A stretch of 64,000 nucleotides of DNA from Escherichia coli (lineage in GTDB: Bacteria; Pseudomonadota; Gammaproteobacteria; Enterobacterales; Enterobacteriaceae). Position numbers and translations under genes: made by a program. Location: NCBI RefSeq assembly GCF_003790525.1, contig NZ_CP033635.1. One strand, 5' to 3'. The notes under the pieces were generated by a model, which was given only the letters and a program-made list of their open reading frames with translations, was not told where the DNA came from and did no database searches. The number at the start of each line of letters is the position of its first letter. Position 1 is the first letter of the stretch. Shown in pieces: positions 15,193 to 44,633 of this stretch.

Positions 15193-15913
15193 AACCCTGC
15201 TCCTCCAGTTGTTTGACCAACGTGAAATCGCCGGATTTCACAATTCGTCCCTGATACAGCACATGGACGTAATCAGGCTTGATGTAGTCGAGAATGCGTT
15301 GGTAGTGCGTAACAATGATGAATGAACGCTTGCCGTCACGCAGCGAATTCACGCCATCGGCAACCACTTTTAATGCGTCAATATCCAGCCCAGAGTCCGA
15401 CTCATCAAGAATGCATAACTCCGGTTCCAGCACCGCCATTTGCAAAATATCGTTGCGCTTTTTCTCGCCGCCGGAAAAACCAACGTTTACCGAACGGGTT
15501 AATAAATCCTCCGGCATCTTCAGGAGAGCGATTTTCTCTTCCATCAAATCCTGAAAATCAAAGCGGTCGAGCGTTTCCTGGCCGCGATAGCTGCGCACCG
15601 CATTAAGTGCCGTTTGCAGGAAAAACTGGTTACTGACGCCGGGAATTTCCACCGGATACTGGAAGGCCATAAAGATGCCTTCACCTGCACGATCTTCCGG
15701 CGACAGCGCAAGCAAATCTTTGCCTTTGAACTCAACCGTGCCGCCCGTCACCTCATAATCTTCTCGCCCGGCAAGCGTTGCCGATAAGGTACTTTTGCCA
15801 GAACCGTTTGGCCCCATAATGGCGTGAACTTCGCCGGGACGAACGTCGAGGCTTAATCCACGCAGGATAGCTTTATCTTCCACGCTGACGTGTAAATCTT
15901 TAATACTTAACAT
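15167..15913 (-). CDS. sufC: Fe-S assembly ATPase SufC (248 aa)
   Basis: ABC ATPase with Walker A GPNGSGKST and signature LSGGEKKR. Confidence 0.93.
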   Translation of the reverse strand: MLSIKDLHVSVEDKAILRGLSLDVRPGEVHAIMGPNGSGKSTLSATLAGREDYEVTGGTVEFKGKDLLALSPEDRAGEGIFMAFQYPVEIPGVSNQFFLQTALNAVRSYRGQETLDRFDFQDLMEEKIALLKMPEDLLTRSVNVGFSGGEKKRNDILQMAVLEPELCILDESDSGLDIDALKVVADGVNSLRDGKRSFIIVTHYQRILDYIKPDYVHVLYQGRIVKSGDFTLVKQLEEQGYGWLTEQQ

Positions 15914-36380: not shown

Positions 36381-38075
36381 ATGCATCCCACAGGCCCGCA
36401 TCTCGGGCCTGATGTTCTGTTTCGAGAGTCCAAAATGAAAGTGACATTAACGTTTAACGAACAACGTCGTGCGGCGTATCGTCAGCAAGGGCTATGGGGC
36501 GATGCTTCGCTGGCCGATTACTGGCAGCAGACCGCTCGTGCGATGCCAGACAAAATTGCCGTGGTCGATAATCATGGTGCATCATACACCTATAGCGCGC
36601 TCGATCACGCCGCGAGCTGTCTGGCAAACTGGATGTTGACGAAGGGTATTGAATCAGGCGATCGCATCGCATTTCAACTGCCTGGCTGGTGTGAATTTAC
36701 CGTTATCTATCTTGCCTGCCTGAAAATCGGTGCGGTTTCCGTACCGCTGTTGCCTTCCTGGCGGGAAGCAGAACTAGTATGGGTACTCAATAAGTGTCAG
36801 GCAAAAATGTTCTTTGCACCGACGTTGTTTAAACAAACGCGTCCGGTAGATTTAATCCTGCCGCTGCAAAATCAGCTTCCACAACTACAACAAATTGTCG
36901 GCGTGGACAAACTGGCTCCCGCCACCTCTTCCCTCTCATTAAGTCAGATTCTCGCCGACAATACCCCACTGACTACGGCGATAACGACCCACGGCGATGA
37001 ATTAGCCGCTGTGCTATTTACCTCCGGAACCGAGGGTCTGCCAAAGGGCGTGATGCTAACGCATAACAATATTCTCGCCAGTGAGCGGGCTTATTGCGCG
37101 CGGCTGAATCTGACCTGGCAGGATGTCTTTATGATGCCTGCGCCACTTGGTCACGCAACGGGCTTTCTGCATGGCGTAACAGCACCATTTTTAATTGGTG
37201 CTCGCAGCGTGTTGTTAGATATTTTCACTCCTGCTGCGTGTCTCGCGCTGCTTGAGCAGCAGCGTTGCACCTGTATGCTCGGCGCAACGCCGTTTGTCTA
37301 TGATCTTTTGAATTTACTAGAGAAACAGCCCGCAGACCTTTCAGCGCTGCGTTTCTTTCTTTGTGGCGGTACCACAATCCCCAAAAAAGTGGCGCGTGAA
37401 TGCCAGCAGCGCGGCATTAAATTATTAAGTGTTTATGGTTCCACAGAAAGTTCGCCGCATGCGGTGGTGAATCTCGATGATCCTTTGTCGCGCTTTATGC
37501 ACACCGATGGTTACGCTGCCGCAGGTGTAGAGATTAAAGTGGTCGATGGCGCACGCAAGACCTTACCGCCAGGTTGCGAAGGTGAAGAAGCCTCGCGTGG
37601 CCCCAATGTGTTTATGGGGTATTTTGATGAACCTGAATTAACCGCCCATGCCCTGGATGAAGAAGGCTGGTATTACAGCGGCGATCTCTGCCGCATGGAT
37701 GAGGCTGGCTATATAAAAATAACCGGGCGCAAGAAAGATATTATTGTCCGCGGCGGCGAAAATATTAGCAGCCGTGAAGTGGAAGATATTTTATTACAGC
37801 ATCCTAAAATTCACGATGCTTGTGTGGTTGCGATGCCCGATGAACGCTTAGGTGAACGTTCATGCGCTTATGTCGTGCTGAAAGCACCGCATCATTCATT
37901 ATCGCTGGAAGATGTAGTGGCATTTTTTAGCCGTAAACGGGTCGCGAAATATAAATATCCTGAACATATCGTGGTAATCGAAAAACTACCGCGCACTGCC
38001 TCCGGTAAAATACAAAAATTTTTGTTACGTAAAGATATTCTTCAACGGCTGGAACAAACATGCGTTGAGGCATAA
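36381..38075 (+). CDS. fadK: Short-chain acyl-CoA synthetase FadK (YdiD)
   Basis: AMP-binding motif FTSGTEGLPKG. Start is uncertain between 36381 and the internal ATG at 36435. Confidence 0.85.
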   Translation: MHPTGPHLGPDVLFRESKMKVTLTFNEQRRAAYRQQGLWGDASLADYWQQTARAMPDKIAVVDNHGASYTYSALDHAASCLANWMLTKGIESGDRIAFQLPGWCEFTVIYLACLKIGAVSVPLLPSWREAELVWVLNKCQAKMFFAPTLFKQTRPVDLILPLQNQLPQLQQIVGVDKLAPATSSLSLSQILADNTPLTTAITTHGDELAAVLFTSGTEGLPKGVMLTHNNILASERAYCARLNLTWQDVFMMPAPLGHATGFLHGVTAPFLIGARSVLLDIFTPAACLALLEQQRCTCMLGATPFVYDLLNLLEKQPADLSALRFFLCGGTTIPKKVARECQQRGIKLLSVYGSTESSPHAVVNLDDPLSRFMHTDGYAAAGVEIKVVDGARKTLPPGCEGEEASRGPNVFMGYFDEPELTAHALDEEGWYYSGDLCRMDEAGYIKITGRKKDIIVRGGENISSREVEDILLQHPKIHDACVVAMPDERLGERSCAYVVLKAPHHSLSLEDVVAFFSRKRVAKYKYPEHIVVIEKLPRTASGKIQKFLLRKDILQRLEQTCVEA

Positions 38076-38084
38076 GTCATAAAT

Positions 38085-38120
38085 AATAAAGCACCTTACA
38101 CGCAAGGTGCTTTATTCAAT
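38085..38120. terminator. Bidirectional rho-independent terminator between fadK and the downstream SDR gene
   Basis: AAAGCACCTT-ACACGC-AAGGTGCTTT hairpin with T-rich flanks on both strands. Confidence 0.7.
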
Positions 38121-38125
38121 CTCGA

Positions 38126-38869
38126 TTAACCACGTCCGACATACGGCATATTATTTGCCATAATCGTTATTTCCAGCACATTCGTGGTTACTGGCAACTG
38201 AGCCATCATCTGAATGGTCGCTGCAACATCAGCAACATTCATCATATCTTCCGCTTTAATAGCACCATCTGCCTGATAAACGCCCTTACGCATCCGATTC
38301 GATAATGTCGTTTCCGCATTGCCGATATTAATTTGCCCGCAAGCGATATTAAATTTGCGACAATCCAGGGAAATGGCCTTGGTCAACCCGGTAACAGCAT
38401 GTTTCGACGCCGTGTATGGCGCAGTATAGAGGCGCGGCGTCAGTGCAGAAATCGACGCATTGTTAATAATACGTCCTCCCATTGGCTGCTGCGCTTTCAT
38501 GATTTTAATCGCCTCTTTCGAACACAAAAATGTCGAATGAATATTGGCGTTAAACACGCGCGTCCACTCAGTAAACTCAACCTCTTCAATACTTTTTGCC
38601 GGACTATTATTGCCCGCATTTTTGAACAAGAGATCCAGTCGACCAAAAAGAGCCTTAATCTCGGCAAATAGCGCAACGACAGCGGACTCATCCGTGACAT
38701 CGGCAACCAGAGGAATAAAGCGTTCCTTGGCTAATCCTTGTGCACATTGCTGTAAGGTTTCTTCGTTACGCGCGGCAACAATAACTGTATATCCAATGTC
38801 ATAGAGTGCCTTTGCTGCTGCGTAGCCGATGCCTTTACTTCCCCCCGTCACCAGGGCAATTTTTGTCAT
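38126..38869 (-). CDS. Short-chain dehydrogenase/reductase (SDR) family oxidoreductase (247 aa)
   Basis: TGGSKGIGYAAA NAD(P)-binding motif, NAG motif and catalytic YTASK (YxxxK). Confidence 0.8.
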   Translation of the reverse strand: MTKIALVTGGSKGIGYAAAKALYDIGYTVIVAARNEETLQQCAQGLAKERFIPLVADVTDESAVVALFAEIKALFGRLDLLFKNAGNNSPAKSIEEVEFTEWTRVFNANIHSTFLCSKEAIKIMKAQQPMGGRIINNASISALTPRLYTAPYTASKHAVTGLTKAISLDCRKFNIACGQINIGNAETTLSNRMRKGVYQADGAIKAEDMMNVADVAATIQMMAQLPVTTNVLEITIMANNMPYVGRG

Positions 38870-38881
38870 AGCCAGCTCCGC

Positions 38882-39361
38882 CTATAATAAACTCATGTCG
38901 ATTTTCACGACTGTTTTTTTGATTTTTTCCACGTTATCGATTTTATAGCATGCCCGATGCACTTCTTCCGGAAAGACCACCACAAACTGTCCTGGTGTCA
39001 GCGTGATGATTCGATCATTAATACGTTCATCAGCATAAAAAATAACATCACGGTCGCCCAGGTGGCTTTCTACAACCGAGTTTTCCCCATCATCAAAATC
39101 CACACAAATCCGCTCTTCTCCGGCAATTAAAAAATGGACATCAAGATATTTACGATGAACTTCCGGTCGACATTCATGTAGTGGTTTAGTCATCGGTTCA
39201 ACCACGGTATAAAATATTGAGTCATCCTGAATAAAAACCTTCTCTCCCACAGGAAGACTATTCAGATCATGTTGTGAAAGATACTCAATGACACGAGTGA
39301 TGACAGGATGAAATGTCCGCTTTTGTTGTTCACTAAGATACGCGATATCACCATAAATCAT
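38882..39361 (-). CDS. YhcH/YjgK/YiaL-family (DUF386) protein, about 160 aa
   Basis: Conserved C-terminal block GQFVVVFPEEVHRACYKIDNVEKIKKTVVK resembles E. coli YhcH (DFVVFYPGEVHKP...KAVVKM). The ORF track extends to 39496; I place the start at MIYGDIAYL (39361). Confidence 0.65.
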   Translation of the reverse strand: MIYGDIAYLSEQQKRTFHPVITRVIEYLSQHDLNSLPVGEKVFIQDDSIFYTVVEPMTKPLHECRPEVHRKYLDVHFLIAGEERICVDFDDGENSVVESHLGDRDVIFYADERINDRIITLTPGQFVVVFPEEVHRACYKIDNVEKIKKTVVKIDMSLL

Positions 39362-39371
39362 ATTTTCCGCC

Positions 39372-40330
39372 TTATTGAGTAACAGGGGTAATAACTGGCC
39401 GTCCGCTAAAGAAAGCCTGTAAGTTATCAAATACCAAATCCGCCATCGCATTAAACGTTTCGCTCGTACCACTGGCGATATGTGGCGTAAGGACAACGTT
39501 ATCCAGCGACATTAATTGTTCTGGCACATGTGGTTCGTTGGCATAAACGTCCAGTGCCGCACCAGCAATGATGTTATTTTGCAGAGCATCAATCAGATCG
39601 GTTTCGTTCACCACTGATCCCCGGGAAATACTGATCAAATGCCCGGTTTTCCCCAGAGCCTGCAGCACCGTTTTGTCAATAACGCCGCGCGTACTCGCGC
39701 CGCCTGGCAGCGTCAGAACGAGGAAGTCCACCGCTTGCGCCAGAGAAACCAACGAATCATGCGCCGTCCAATCAGGTTTGTTATGCGGTTTTGGGTCGAA
39801 ATAGTGAATTTCCATTTCAAATGCTGCTGCACGGCGGGCTACTGCGTTACCAATGTTCCCCAGACCGACAATTCCGCAACGTTTGCCACTCACTTTCGTC
39901 GCCATCGGGAAACGCCCCTCGTTTGGCCAACGGCCGTCACGAACATAACAATCGGCAATGTTAATACGTCGGGCAACATTGAGTAACAACGCTATACCAA
40001 TGTCTGCGACACAGTCATTAAGCACGCCAGGTGTGTTGGTGACGATAACGCCATGCTCCCTGGCTGCCACGATATCAATAGGGTCATAACCCACACCGTT
40101 GCTGGCAATAATCTTCAGATTCGGAATTTTTCTATTAGCGCCCGAGAAGCCCCCATTACCGGATTACCACTGGTCACCAGCGCCTGAATATCCGGCGCGA
40201 TTTGCGTGTAAAAAGCGCCTTCATCAGCCAGTTCCCACAGGCGATATGCGGTGAAGGTAGATTCAACTTTAGCCATTAAGCGGTCACTTAATTTGCCGAC
40301 GATCGCCACTTGAATATCTTTTAAGTTCAT
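39372..40330 (-). pseudogene. D-isomer-specific 2-hydroxyacid dehydrogenase, split by a probable 1-nt deletion
   Basis: N-terminal 71-aa ORF (40115..40330) and C-terminal 240-aa ORF (39372..40094; GIVGLGNIGNAVA NAD motif, catalytic His in HIASGT) are in different frames. The junction reads GAAAAATTCCGAATCTGAAGATT (minus strand); one extra C would give the contiguous EKFPNLKIIASNGVGYDPIDI. Confidence 0.7.
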
Positions 40331-40365
40331 ACACTATTCCTTGATTGATGTTTGTCGCAGGCCAC

Positions 40366-41772
40366 TTACCACAGGCCAAGAATTTTCCACCACACCGCCC
40401 CCAGTCCGAACCAGATGGCAATGTTCAACAACATGACGATAAAGCCCAGCCGCCACCATTCTCGTTGCGAGACATAGCCAGCGCCGTAATAGATCACTGC
40501 GGGTCCGTTGCCATAATGCGAAATGCCGCTCATCAGGTTAGTGACGAACGCCAGTGACAGAGCCGCCATCATCGGCGGTGCGCCAGCAGCAACCGAGACG
40601 CTGCCAAAAGCGGCATACATCGCCACTACATGCGGCGTACTTCCGGCAAAGAAATAGTGGGAATAGCAGTAAACTATCAGCAACACCGTCAACGTTATCT
40701 CCCACGGAATGCCGGTGAACAGCGCCGAGGTTGTGACGGCAAACCATTTGAACAGGCCAAGCTGATTGAGCTTATCTGCCATACAGATCATGACTCCCAG
40801 CCAGACCAGAATGTCCCAGGCCCCCTTCTCTGACTGCACATCCTGCCAGGTGATAATCCGGGTCATCAACATTAAACAGACGCCAGAAAGCGCGACAGCC
40901 GTCGCATCCAGGCCAGTCCATTTCGATGTACTCCAGGCCAATAATGAAAGCAGGAAAATGCCAATTGTCACGCGCTCATCACGGGTTACCGGCCCCATTT
41001 TGATAAGTTCTTCCTGTGCCAACGCTTTGGCTTCTGGCGTCTTTTTGATCTCTGGCGGGTAGAGTTTGTAAATGACCAACGGCATAGTGATAAAAGCGAT
41101 AATGCCCGGCACCAGTGCGCTTAGCGTCCACATCCCCCATGAGATATCGACAAATAAAGTGCTGGCCGCCAGAGATACAATGAGTGCATTTGGCGCGCTG
41201 GCCGTCATAAACATCGAGGATGAGAGACAGTTGGAATGGAACACCGTCTGCATCAGATAAGCGCCTATTTTACGCGGCCCTTGATCCGGTTCAGATCCAA
41301 AGCTGTTAGAGACACTGCGAACAATCGGGAACAAAATCCCTCCTGCTCGCGCTGTGTTTGATGGCGTTGCGGGCGCGATAATCATATCGCTTAGCGCCAA
41401 TGTATAACCCAGACGCAACGAGCTGCCGCCAAATCCGCGAATCAGCAAATAGGCGATACGCCGCCCCAACCCCGTTTTGATGAATCCTTTCGCGTACAGG
41501 AATGCGGCGACAATAAGCCATACCGTCGTGCTGCTGAAACCTTTTAAGGCTTCGCTGGTTTTCATCATACCGGTCAGCATAATAAAACTGATGGCTATTA
41601 ACGCGATAGCGCCCACCGGCAACGGTTGCAGAATAAACGCCACCACAGTGGTGATAAATATGGCCAGAATGTGCCAGGTTAAGGGTGTTAATCCGTCGGG
41701 GACGGGGAAAAACCATATAGCGAGTGCGACAATCGCACAAATCAGGACTTTCAAATAGCAACTCATATGCAA
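40366..41772 (-). CDS. DASS-family anion transporter (CitT/TtdT-like), 466-468 aa
   Basis: Motifs shared with E. coli CitT: FPVPDG, GFSSTTVWL, GLGRRIA, TPSNTARAGG, SSSMF, YWRLG-like C-terminus. The second ATG at 41766 has the better Shine-Dalgarno spacing. Confidence 0.8.
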   Translation of the reverse strand: MHMSCYLKVLICAIVALAIWFFPVPDGLTPLTWHILAIFITTVVAFILQPLPVGAIALIAISFIMLTGMMKTSEALKGFSSTTVWLIVAAFLYAKGFIKTGLGRRIAYLLIRGFGGSSLRLGYTLALSDMIIAPATPSNTARAGGILFPIVRSVSNSFGSEPDQGPRKIGAYLMQTVFHSNCLSSSMFMTASAPNALIVSLAASTLFVDISWGMWTLSALVPGIIAFITMPLVIYKLYPPEIKKTPEAKALAQEELIKMGPVTRDERVTIGIFLLSLLAWSTSKWTGLDATAVALSGVCLMLMTRIITWQDVQSEKGAWDILVWLGVMICMADKLNQLGLFKWFAVTTSALFTGIPWEITLTVLLIVYCYSHYFFAGSTPHVVAMYAAFGSVSVAAGAPPMMAALSLAFVTNLMSGISHYGNGPAVIYYGAGYVSQREWWRLGFIVMLLNIAIWFGLGAVWWKILGLW

Positions 41773-42218
41773 TCCCTGTAGCTGTTTCCCACCGCTCGCG
41801 GAGGGAATTTATCCTGTTTTCTGTACAGCCAGACAAATCAGAAAATCGGTTTTAGTTCGAATAAATTCTCTGAATTACATAATCTGCGCTTATGTCTGAA
41901 TAACGGTGCGGTAATTTTTCATGGCCATATCCCTTTTTATGCTGTGGTTGAAGATAGTATAAAAACGGGACTCATCAGTGACTTCGTGCAATCCAACGAA
42001 CTCTGGACGAAAAAATTACGCATATGCTTAAGGAAATTGACGTGTGGTCACATTCGGCTTTGAGAAAAAACGGTATCGAGAATTATTCTGTGGAGAGGAT
42101 CGCAAACAAATTAAAATCAGAAAGAACAGCAGCCAATTATTCAGATGATGTCCGGAAACTTTTTATATTGCATGAGCGCGTTTGCCCAAAGCAGGTTGTT
42201 AAAAGGTGGGGATATAGA

Positions 42219-42253
42219 AATGGACCCGGCGACTGAACGCCGCCGGGTTTTTA
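42219..42253. terminator. Terminator hairpin abutting the ppsA stop codon
   Basis: ACCCGGCG-ACTGAA-CGCCGGGT followed by TTTTTATTT on the plus strand; likely the ppsA terminator acting bidirectionally. Confidence 0.6.
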
Positions 42254-42254
42254 T

Positions 42255-44633
42255 TTACTTGTTAAGTTCAGCCAGACTTAACCAGGTTTGCACCACGGTG
42301 TCCGGGTTAAGAGACAGGCTATCGATCCCCTCTTCCATCAACCATGCAGCAAAGTCTTCGTGGTCGGATGGACCCTGACCGCAAATCCCGACATATTTGC
42401 CCTGTTTCTTCGCGGCACGAATCGCCATCGACAGCAGTGCTTTCACCGCATCGTTGCGCTCATCGAACAGTTCAGATACCACGCCGGAGTCACGATCCAG
42501 ACCGAGCGCCAGCTGCGTCATGTCGTTTGAGCCAATTGAGAAGCCGTCGAAATATTCGAGGAACTGCTCGGCCAGCAAGGCGTTGGACGGGATTTCACAC
42601 ATCATGATGATTTTCAGCCCGTTCTCACCACGTTTCAGCCCCTGACGCGCCAGTTCCTCAACCACCGCTTTCGCCTGATCTACGGTACGCACGAACGGGA
42701 TCATGATCTCAACGTTGGTCAGCCCCATGTCGTTGCGCACACGTTTCACTGCTTCACACTCCAGCGCGAAGCAGTCGCGGAAGCTGTCGGAAACATAGCG
42801 GCCCGCGCCACGGAAGCCGAGCATCGGGTTCTCTTCATCTGGCTCGTAACGCTCACCACCGACCAGGTTGGCATATTCGTTCGATTTAAAATCAGAGAGA
42901 CGGACAATGACGCGCTTCGGATAAAACGCGGCACCCAGCGTCGCGATCCCTTCAGTCAGACGACCAACGTAAAATTCACGCGGAGAATCAAAACCTTTCA
43001 TCATCTCGCGGATTTCGTTTTGCAACTGCGGTTCTTGATCGTCAAACTCAAGCAGCGCGCGTGGGTGGACGCCAATCATACGGTTGATGATAAATTCCAG
43101 ACGCGCAAGGCCCACGCCTTCGTTCGGCAGGCAGGCGAAGTCGAAAGCACGATCCGGGTTACCGACGTTCATCATCACCTTCAACGGCAGGTCCGGCATC
43201 GTTTCTACGCTGGAGCTTTTCACGCTAAATTCCAGCAACTCCGCATAGACATAACCGGTATCACCTTCGGCACAAGAAACAGTGACGTTCTCACCGTCTT
43301 TCATCCGTTCTGTTGCATCACCACAGCCCACTACCGCCGGAATGCCGAGTTCACGAGCGATGATCGCCGCGTGACAGGTACGACCGCCACGGTTGGTGAC
43401 GATGGCAGATGCTTTCTTCATGATCGGTTCCCAGTCCGGGTCGGTCATGTCAGTAACCAGCACGTCACCAGGTTCGATGCGGTTCATTTCGCTGATGTCA
43501 TGGATGACTTTCACCGGACCCGCGCCGATGCGATGACCGATAGCACGGCCTTCGGCGATAATCTTACCCTGTGAATGCAGCGTATAACGCTCCATGACCT
43601 GACCGCGTGAGCGCACGGTTTCCGGACGCGCCTGCACAATGAACAGTTTGCCGGTGTGGCCATCTTTCGCCCACTCAATATCCATCGGGCGACCGTAGTG
43701 TTTCTCAATTTGTACGGCCTGTTTTGCCAGTTCCTGCACTTCTTCGTTGGTCAGCGAGAAGATGTCACGCTGTTCCTGCGGTACGTCTTCGATTTTAACC
43801 TGCTTGCCGTGCTCCTGGGTCGGCGCGTAAACCATGCGGATTTTTTTCGACCCCATGGTGCGGCGCACGATAGCCGGGCGATTCGCCGCCAGTGTCGGTT
43901 TGTGCACGTAAAACTCATCCGGGTTAACCGCACCCTGCACGACCATTTCACCAAGGCCCCATGCGGAAGTGATAAACACCACCTGGTCAAAGCCGGATTC
44001 GGTATCAATGGAGAACATCACGCCAGAAGATGCGAGGTCGGAGCGCACCATCCGCTGAACACCGGCGGAGAGCGCCACGCCACGGTGATCGTAACCCTGG
44101 TGCACACGATAAGAGATGGCGCGATCGTTAAACAGAGAAGCAAATACATGTTTCACTGCCACGAGAACGGCGTCAAAACCCTGAACGTTGAGGAAGGTTT
44201 CCTGCTGACCGGCAAAAGAAGCGTCCGGCATATCTTCTGCAGTAGCGGAGGAACGCACCGCAAACGAGGCGTTTTCGTCATCGGCGGAAAGCTGTGCATA
44301 GGCTTCGCGGATGGCGTTTTCCAGCTCAGGCTGGAAGGGAGTGTCGATAATCCACTGGCGGATTTGCGCGCCCGCTTTCGCAAGCTGGGTAACATCGTCA
44401 ATATCCGTTTTATCCAGCAGTTCATAAATGCGCTGGTTTACGCCGCTTTGGTCCAGAAACTGGTTAAACGCGTCGGCGGTTGTGGCGAAACCATTCGGAA
44501 CGGAAACACCCATTCCGGAAAGGTTAGTAATCATTTCACCCAGGGAGGCATTTTTGCCCCCAACCCTGTCTACATCATTCATGCCGAGTTGGTTATACCA
44601 AAGCACCAGCGGTGACGAGCCATTGTTGGACAT
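42255..44633 (-). CDS. ppsA: Phosphoenolpyruvate synthase (792 aa)
   Basis: Full-length PpsA by sequence, [34 protein letters not shown] onwards. Confidence 0.96.

Follow-up and report, generated by a model that had tools for sequence, protein, structure and literature searches.

A rare, probably horizontally exchanged four-gene operon between fadK and ppsA of Escherichia coli, with a predicted role in the catabolism of a hydroxy- or keto-carboxylate

The DASS-family transporters CitT and TtdT of Escherichia coli are di-/tricarboxylate:succinate antiporters, and the yiaK-S operon offers a precedent for combining a 2,3-diketo-L-gulonate reductase, a DUF386-family protein (YiaL), and a dedicated transporter (Yew and Gerlt 2002, as cited in PMC12994016). 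YhcH/NanQ, also of the DUF386 family, is a zinc anomerase: it converts cyclic N-acetylneuraminate to the open form that its aldolase needs (Kentache et al., 2021; PMC8141875). The metal site of the family, Glu-His-Asp-His, has been defined (PMC12517248). Among short-chain dehydrogenases/reductases (SDRs), the L-threonate 3-dehydrogenase (Ltn3D) of Paracoccus litorisediminis (PlLtn3D; PDB 9X6I) oxidises the 3-hydroxyl of 2(R),3(S) C4-C6 aldonates, with its lowest Km for D-gluconate; in Paracoccus, the gene for a 2-keto-gluconate/2-keto-gulonate reductase (2KGR, similar to PDB 4LSW) adjoins that of Ltn3D and makes the Ltn3D substrate, and 3OtnK and 3OtnC turn the 3-oxo products into pentulose 5-phosphates (Watanabe et al., J Biol Chem 2026; PMC12994016). 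Here we describe a four-gene cassette that encodes a DASS-family permease, a D-2-hydroxyacid dehydrogenase, a DUF386 protein, and an Ltn3D-like SDR. It lies between fadK and ppsA in a 64,000-nucleotide stretch of E. coli contig NZ_CP033635.1 (assembly GCF_003790525.1), the whole of which is called the window below. The cassette is very probably a catabolic operon for a vicinal hydroxy/keto carboxylate; more tentatively, we read it as horizontally exchanged and devoted to a keto or hydroxy sugar acid that a five-step pathway would handle, with a 2-keto-aldonate (such as 2-keto-D-gluconate or 2-keto-L-gulonate) as the likeliest substrate.

An earlier reading of the window's sequence (the original prediction) had placed a K-12-absent accessory insert with four minus-strand genes at this position, between genes described as adjacent and convergent in K-12, and genome comparison agrees on each point: fadK and ppsA are convergent neighbours in K-12 with a stop-to-stop distance of 56 bp, as compared with 4179 bp in the window. 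K-12 lacks the insert (~4.18 kb; 38040..42223), as do ~98% of the complete E. coli genomes. In the direction of transcription, its minus-strand genes encode a DASS-family anion permease (466 aa; 40366..41766), a D-isomer-specific 2-hydroxyacid dehydrogenase (39372..40330; 319 aa when intact), a DUF386 (YhcH/YjgK/YiaL family) protein (159 aa; 38882..39361), and an SDR oxidoreductase of the Ltn3D-like subfamily (247 aa; 38126..38869). The four genes are co-directional and are separated by gaps of 35, 10, and 12 bp, and therefore form an operon.

Families were assigned using NCBIfam models with curated cut-offs, with matches reported at E ≤ 1e-5. The DUF386 protein scored 131 bits against TIGR00022 (cut-off 45.5), in keeping with the predicted YhcH/YjgK/YiaL family, and is a member of PF04074. 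The permease, predicted to be a CitT/TtdT-like DASS carrier, does belong to the DASS family (TC 2.A.47), with 447.6 bits against TIGR00785 (cut-off 198.6; residues 21-460 over model positions 1-444) and PF00939 recorded on its cluster representatives; however, only this general DASS subfamily model was matched and no CitT- or TtdT-specific one, and the nearest solved relatives are DiT1, DiT2, and LaINDY. The dehydrogenase and SDR matched many NCBIfam models, at family level only; to that level the predicted identities hold, though the prediction missed that in the window the dehydrogenase is frameshifted and the SDR mutated, as described below.

Of 5426 complete E. coli genomes, 114 carry the island, each with one chromosomal copy, and its alleles fall into a group of at least 99% identity (80 genomes) and a group of ~96% identity (34 genomes). 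In a scan of one genome per species, the same four genes occupied the fadK-ppsA site in E. whittamii and in a cryptic-clade Escherichia. The order permease, dehydrogenase, DUF386, SDR is kept in five genera and in five chromosomal contexts. The Citrobacter youngae cassette adjoins tam, with protein identities to the island of 94, 83, 72, and 85% (permease, dehydrogenase, DUF386, SDR), and that of Mangrovibacter occupies another context, with identities of 55, 74, 57, and 82% in the same order. The Salmonella enterica cassette follows tolB-pal-cpoB and is itself followed by a transposase (HTH_Tnp_1) fragment and bigA; this is the only copy that a transposase fragment adjoins. Celerinatantimonas, a marine gammaproteobacterium, carries the cassette in yet another context. 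All 24 of the 24 cassette open reading frames (ORFs) compared were intact, with dN/dS of 0.01-0.15, and all four genes are under strong purifying selection. Conserved co-occurrence had been set beforehand as the test of whether the four genes form a functional unit, and the shared gene order in five genera, together with purifying selection, supports such a unit. None of the five contexts contained a regulator adjoining the cassette, nor a kinase or aldolase. A search of 72,556 PLSDB plasmids returned no near matches to the cassette, only short single-gene matches at 68-70%.

The Citrobacter (L009, 8001-11642) and Salmonella (L025/L026, 4103-8014) cassettes share 94-99% protein identity, with synonymous divergence (dS) of 0.14-0.37, whereas dS between either of them and the E. 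coli cassette exceeds 1.8 or is saturated; this closeness, set against the distance to E. coli, points to a recent transfer of the cassette between the two genera. Within Escherichia, the divergence of the island does not track that of its flanks. Between strain SMS-3-5 and E. whittamii, dS is 0.12-0.20 in the island as compared with 0.32-0.42 in ppsA and fadK; between the two E. coli alleles, it is 0.10-0.22 in the island and 0.07-0.08 in the flanks. The simplest explanation is that the island has been exchanged through its flanks by homologous recombination, rather than having arisen as a single old indel. The original prediction's "old indel-type island" is too simple an account, given the five contexts in five genera, the 94-99% identity of the Citrobacter and Salmonella copies with the transposase fragment after the latter, and the difference between island and flank divergence.

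In Celerinatantimonas (L029, 5022-12070), the cassette lies between two genes for methyl-accepting chemotaxis proteins, the downstream one of which is overlapped at its start by a 304-aa ORF without a Pfam match. These flanking genes could hint at chemotaxis toward the cassette's substrate.

The best PDB matches of the SDR were 4DYV (51.6% identity), 4DRY, and 9X6I (PlLtn3D; 50.2% identity), with 4DYV itself 57% identical to PlLtn3D (PMC12994016). Mutagenesis of PlLtn3D found Ser136, Arg143, Tyr149, Asn181, and Glu204 to be essential, with M186A mildly affected (PMC12994016). PlLtn3D Ser136, Arg143, Tyr149, Lys153, Asn181, Glu204, and Met238 correspond to island residues S139, R146, Y152, K156, N184, E207, and M241, so that the essential catalytic and carboxylate-binding residues are all conserved, and Met186 maps to Leu189. 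The Ltn3D clade (EC 1.1.1.129-type SDRs) has 99.9% bootstrap support in the tree of PMC12994016. The reference allele carries the classical SDR motifs TGGSKGIG and LFNNAG along with Ser139, Tyr152, and Lys156; the window copy departs from these with KNAG. The coenzyme pair R34-N35 is the "Arg-X" variant listed for putative Ltn3Ds (PMC12994016), and Arg34 suggests that the enzyme probably prefers NADP+. Two other identities, IdnO and KduD, were considered and rejected: the nearest gluconate 5-dehydrogenase model scored 111 bits against a cut-off of 279, and no KduD model was present among the best 25 SDR matches.

For the dehydrogenase, the best PDB match was 4LSW, the 2-keto-L-gulonate reductase of Ketogulonicigenium vulgare (Kv2KGR; 272.5 bits, 47.1% identity over 295 residues). 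Nearly as close were hydroxyphenylpyruvate reductase 3BA1 (256 bits) and glyoxylate/hydroxypyruvate reductase 5J23 (255 bits); another glyoxylate/hydroxypyruvate reductase, 5V7G, was also matched, as was the model NF009714 at 224 bits. Identity with GhrB was rejected (model score 174 bits, cut-off 492), as was identity with GhrA, for which the score fell under the curated cut-off. The intact reference allele, of the PF00389/PF02826 family, contains GLGNIG at 156-161, Arg237 (SISRG), Glu266 (ANEP), and His284 (TPHIAS), the last three of which are assigned as the catalytic triad of the family. Asp179 aligns with the Asp of the NAD-using Kv2KGR, and because it stands at the coenzyme-discriminating position the enzyme probably uses NADH.

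The DUF386 protein, aligned to 1JOP/1S4C and 9JRR, retains the metal ligands of its family: Glu67, His69, Asp74, and His135 correspond to Glu62, His64, Asp69, and His128 of YjgK and to Glu63, His65, Asp70, and His130 of HI0227. It is not NanQ, as NF040884 scored 102.4 bits against a cut-off of 160 and no nan genes were present in the five contexts. An exhaustive HMMER search over 1.84 billion representatives placed the proteins of Citrobacter (72%) and Mangrovibacter (57%) first, with everything else at ~43% identity or below; a word-indexed search with the same query gave 4 matches only, and HMMER was needed to show this identity gap. A 40% homologue is grouped with kduI, a kduD-like SDR, and kdgT, and so again with genes for a 2-keto sugar acid. 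In solution, 2-keto-aldonates are largely cyclic hemiketals, and a ring-opening helper beside a 2-keto reductase therefore makes chemical sense; yiaK-yiaL offers a parallel.

By sequence, the permease belongs to the dicarboxylate-exchanger clade of DiT1, DiT2, and LaINDY. These relatives aligned end to end, at 436 bits (DiT1, 9MCR), 390 bits (DiT2, 9MCU), and 356 bits (LaINDY, 6WTW), and the hairpin-tip motifs PSNTARAGG (135) and SHYGNGPA (416) align with the corresponding segments of all three; in DASS structures, such SNT-type motifs on two re-entrant hairpin tips form the substrate site. Permease relatives at 56-58% identity in Negativicutes adjoin genes for fumarase and fumarate reductase, or LarA-like and aconitase-like genes.

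The proposal of the original prediction, that the cassette takes up a hydroxy- or keto-carboxylate and converts it by redox chemistry, is still the best reading, and a sugar acid is the best supported of the options it named. From these homologies we infer a sequence of five chemical steps. The DASS permease would import the acid, and the DUF386 zinc protein, by analogy with YhcH/NanQ, would open or anomerise the cyclic hemiketal to give the free 2-keto form. The D-2-hydroxyacid dehydrogenase, to judge from its 47% identity to 2-keto-L-gulonate reductase, would then reduce C2 to yield a 2(R)-aldonate, and the Ltn3D-like SDR, given 50% identity and conservation of all the essential residues, would oxidise the 3(S)-hydroxyl to a 3-oxo acid. 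The final step is speculative: OtnK and OtnC, encoded elsewhere on the chromosome, might phosphorylate and decarboxylate the 3-oxo acid to a pentulose 5-phosphate. The otnK-otnC genes are carried by 4578 of the 5426 complete E. coli genomes; strain MSB1_4I has both them and the island. That the DUF386-2-ketoacid reductase-Ltn3D-OtnK/OtnC combination is a route new to Enterobacteriaceae, leading 2-keto-gluconate, 2-keto-gulonate, or ascorbate-derived acids into the pentose-phosphate pathway after DiT1-like uptake, is a rather doubtful proposition taken as a whole. The mutS-rpoS region of K-12 (L031, 14790-19825) holds an ltnD-otnK-otnC-ygbM-ygbN operon, itself variable.

Several observations weigh against a 2-keto-aldonate pathway. 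For none of the cassette enzymes did an NCBIfam equivalog model reach its cut-off, and at 47-50% identity substrate specificity may differ from that of the characterised homologues. Given the dicarboxylate-exchanger clade of the permease and the neighbours of its Negativicutes relatives, a monocarboxylic keto-aldonate is not its expected cargo. Reduced and altered gene sets also occur. Between malZ and proY, other Enterobacteriaceae have an insert of two genes (L008, 6439-8864; L022/L023, 4971-7401), in which a dehydrogenase paralogue 47% identical to that of the island precedes a permease 90-92% identical; it may be a minimal version of the system, and implies that transport and one dehydrogenase can suffice. 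Klebsiella and C. koseri have the SDR by itself. On a metagenomic contig (L024, 644-6988), the genes after a 71% identical permease code for another DUF386 protein (38% identical), a pair of M20-family peptidases, and a carrier of the DcuC type, so that DASS and DUF386 are again linked, but in the company of other enzymes. A substrate of the tartrate or aldarate type is accordingly a serious rival, even if, on our estimate, an unlikely one. Under it, the cassette would catabolise a hydroxy- or keto-dicarboxylate (meso-/D-tartrate, aldarate, or keto-aldarate): the DASS exchanger would swap the acid against succinate or malate, the SDR would oxidise a 3-hydroxyl to a beta-keto diacid of the oxaloglycolate type, the DUF386 protein would assist tautomerisation, decarboxylation, or ring opening, and the dehydrogenase would reduce the hydroxypyruvate or 2-keto acid so formed, giving D-glycerate or a similar compound. 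Pseudomonas provides an analogue of such a scheme in its orphan oxaloglycolate reductase (decarboxylating) route. The closest solved and contextual relatives of the permease are all dicarboxylate carriers, and CitT and TtdT carry di- and tricarboxylates; the dehydrogenase scores well against 5J23 and 5V7G, and the permease-dehydrogenase pair between malZ and proY would fit simple hydroxy-dicarboxylate oxidation. The SDR can be argued both ways, since tartronate, a C3 dicarboxylate, binds PlLtn3D tightly (Ki 55 µM) but L-tartrate is not a substrate (PMC12994016). The pairing of 2KGR with Ltn3D in Paracoccus, moreover, concerns aldonates, no precedent ties DUF386 to dicarboxylates, and the cassette has neither a decarboxylase nor a glycerate kinase.

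A further alternative, doubtful though far from negligible, is that the cassette is a functional module of transport and redox enzymes for a different small organic acid, for instance a product of ascorbate breakdown such as 2,3-diketo-L-gulonate or L-threonate, or for a substrate of detoxification or salvage, and not a growth pathway predictable from characterised homologues. The yiaK-yiaL arrangement of reductase, DUF386 protein, and transporter provides a model for it, the plant-root association of Mangrovibacter and Celerinatantimonas is in keeping with it, and the absence of a kinase, aldolase, or regulator from the five contexts also favours it. Ltn3D acts on L-threonate, and the sugar acids that it handles share an origin in vitamin C degradation (PMC12994016). 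However, this is a residual category for which the data single out no substrate, and the strong purifying selection seen in each of the four genes speaks for a defined pathway over loose promiscuity. The 2-keto-aldonate pathway remains our preferred, if tentative, reading.

A different kind of alternative concerns the window's own copy. Megablast of 38000-42300 against the 5426 complete E. coli genomes gave a full-length match to SMS-3-5, which is the strain of the window, and the window aligns with the corresponding 65 kb of RefSeq SMS-3-5 (NC_010498.1, reverse complement) over 64000 of 64001 positions, with 2 mismatches and 1 gap. Of these 3 differing positions across 64 kb, 2 lie inside the island; the only one outside, at 15347, is a synonymous AAC to AAT change (Asn189) in sufC. 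In the dehydrogenase gene, one T of a TTT run (gene nucleotides 205-207; window ~40124-40127) is missing relative to RefSeq SMS-3-5, such that translation leaves the reading frame at codon 69 and stops after residue 71; the GxGxxG motif and the Arg-Glu-His residues all lie beyond the break and are hence untranslated. RefSeq SMS-3-5 and all other copies examined have the intact gene (319 aa), and none of the 102 other island-bearing genomes that a 71-bp probe at this site matched has the deletion. In the SDR, T at 38621 (reference A) changes LFNNAG to LFKNAG (Asn83Lys); a 71-bp probe at this site found the reference base in all 114 other copies, and NNAG is kept in all three solved homologues (4DYV, 4DRY, 9X6I). 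No exact match to the window's own 71-bp probe was found elsewhere for either site. Taken at face value, these changes probably disable the dehydrogenase and SDR steps (C2 reduction and C3 oxidation) in this copy.

These changes raise the possibility that the window's cassette is a decaying remnant, non-functional through the frameshift and the NNAG substitution and with no present role. Both island changes are damaging and the sufC change is synonymous; neither was seen in any other island-bearing genome matched; and under uniform placement the chance of at least 2 of 3 differences falling in the 4.1-kb island is ~0.012. Nevertheless, we regard decay as very unlikely. The deletion lies in a short homopolymer, and the source of the two changes may be true mutation, sequencing error, or editing; the genes are intact in RefSeq SMS-3-5; and decay of one copy would have no bearing on the function of the cassette in general.

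In RefSeq SMS-3-5, the annotated order is ydiQRST-fadK, the four genes, and ppsA-ppsR-aroH. The left boundary of the insert was located with window positions 37300-38130 as query: the fadK of 5375 island-less genomes aligns only as far as 38039 (query position 740), inside the gene. On the right, an island-less genome aligns again from ~42224, at the ppsA terminator, a hairpin on the minus strand (42224..42248; 10-pair stem with 8 GC pairs) that aligns with the K-12 intergenic hairpin; common to both, it marks the right junction. The original prediction had set the insert between the terminators of the two genes, which is correct for this edge but not for the left one, which falls within fadK. 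There the insert replaces the last 12 codons (38040..38075, + strand) with a diverged homologue of the K-12 tail, ending in DILQRLEQTCVEA before the stop as compared with DIMRRLTQDVCEEIE in K-12; E. whittamii and the 96% E. coli allele share this diverged tail. Between the fadK and SDR stops, a perfect 10-bp hairpin (AAAGCACCTT, loop ACACGC, AAGGTGCTTT; 38088..38113) can be read in the sequence; it probably serves as a bidirectional terminator ending the operon, although a consensus terminator scan did not flag it. As predicted, the ORFs of 38040-42223 include no regulator gene and no integrase or transposase, and inspection of the junctions found no direct repeats. On these grounds it does not qualify as a mobile element, of which an integrase or transposase, terminal repeats, or a tRNA-linked attachment site in the window would have been the sign.

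A 457-bp non-coding leader/promoter region (41767..42223, minus strand) precedes the permease gene and travels with the cassette. Alignment A1 showed which blocks of the leader are conserved between Escherichia, Citrobacter, and Salmonella. The palindrome CTGTACAG stands between the inverted arms TTTTCTG (41817-41823) and CAGAAAA (41839-41845); further conserved blocks are a TTCGT...ACGAAGTCAC repeat and TTTTTATACT; and a -10-like TATACT (+ strand, 41957-41962) is also conserved. The blocks are candidate operator or promoter elements for a trans-encoded regulator. A riboswitch or other known RNA in place of a regulator was considered and rejected, as the leader gave no Rfam match at E ≤ 1 and its RNA fold is no better than that of shuffles (z = 0.5). 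No consensus sigma-70 promoter was found on the minus strand, overall counts match chance, and apparent LexA and CRP sites in the blocks proved by eye to be off-spacing or half-matches. A 70-aa ORF on the + strand (42024-42236) runs into the ppsA terminator and contains indels in Citrobacter and Salmonella; it is unlikely to be a gene.

Two other features of the window lie outside the insert. The gene ydhS (538-2135, +), for an FAD/NAD(P)-binding protein, is annotated as frameshifted in RefSeq SMS-3-5, and the window ORF from 538 stops at 1683 (381 aa); it is a pseudogene in the window strain. Between yniD and thrS, a 632-aa ORF (60469-62367, +) carries the annotation of the type III secretion effector EspL1 and may be a further accessory gene.

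If the proposed function is correct, a portable operon without its own regulator would open a sugar-acid niche, whether of ketogluconates or of breakdown products of ascorbate or plant acids, to ~2% of E. coli (including phylogroup-F strains such as SMS-3-5 and CE10), to some Citrobacter and Salmonella, and to two plant-associated genera. DUF386 would then have a second role, ring opening for a reductase rather than an aldolase; the Ltn3D subfamily would extend into enteric bacteria, and the cargo of the DiT1-like DASS clade beyond dicarboxylates; and an accessory cassette would be linked to the chromosomal otn (ygbJKLM) genes, giving a role to the poorly understood ygb/otn genes. In kind, the cassette is an ordinary accessory catabolic operon of well-known enzyme families, with no conceptual surprise. 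A search of one literature library found no description of the four-gene cassette, in line with its having been singled out as an undescribed system, but the characterisation in 2026 of close homologues of two of its enzymes (PMC12994016) lowers that novelty. The operon is real, rare, conserved, and uncharacterised, and is built from known families, two of its parts having characterised homologues at ~50% identity.

Among described systems, the transporter finds its likeness in the DASS exchangers DiT1/DiT2, LaINDY, CitT, and TtdT: homology is full-length, as scored above for the first three, and the hairpin tips are conserved. The citT and ttdT genes are operon-linked to cargo-consuming enzymes, and the island permease is likewise enzyme-linked. 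It has no equivalog-level match to CitT or TtdT, its cargo is predicted only, and the operon joins it to oxidoreductases of vicinal hydroxy/keto acids instead of a lyase or dehydratase. YhcH/NanQ, of the nan regulon, and YiaL, of yiaK-S, belong to the same TIGR00022 family as the island DUF386 protein and have the same four metal ligands; like it, both adjoin an enzyme needing the open 2-keto form of a sugar acid that in solution is mainly a ring, as well as a dedicated transporter. In contrast to theirs, its close relatives are scarce; in contrast to NanQ, its score falls under the equivalog cut-off (102 vs. 160 bits) and its partner is a reductase, not an aldolase.

The closest counterpart of the enzyme pairing is that of 2KGR (GL300_RS07940) and Ltn3D (GL300_RS07945) in the C4/C5/C6 sugar-acid cluster of Paracoccus litorisediminis, in which the first enzyme makes a 2(R)-aldonate and the second takes it as its substrate. 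The Paracoccus 2KGR (Pl2KGR) is ~45% identical to the K. vulgare enzyme (4LSW), the island dehydrogenase 47%. The coenzyme determinants differ: the island dehydrogenase has Asp179, as in Kv2KGR, where Pl2KGR has Ser-Arg, and the island SDR has Arg34-Asn35 where PlLtn3D has Arg33-Arg34. Whereas the Paracoccus genes are adjacent, those of the island are split by the gene for a DUF386 protein, a family of which PMC12994016 makes no mention, and are preceded by that of a DASS exchanger; the island cassette also has no Ltn2D, OtnI, 3OtnK, or 3OtnC of its own. Set beside the Paracoccus pair, then, the island presents the same pairing of enzymes in a different arrangement.

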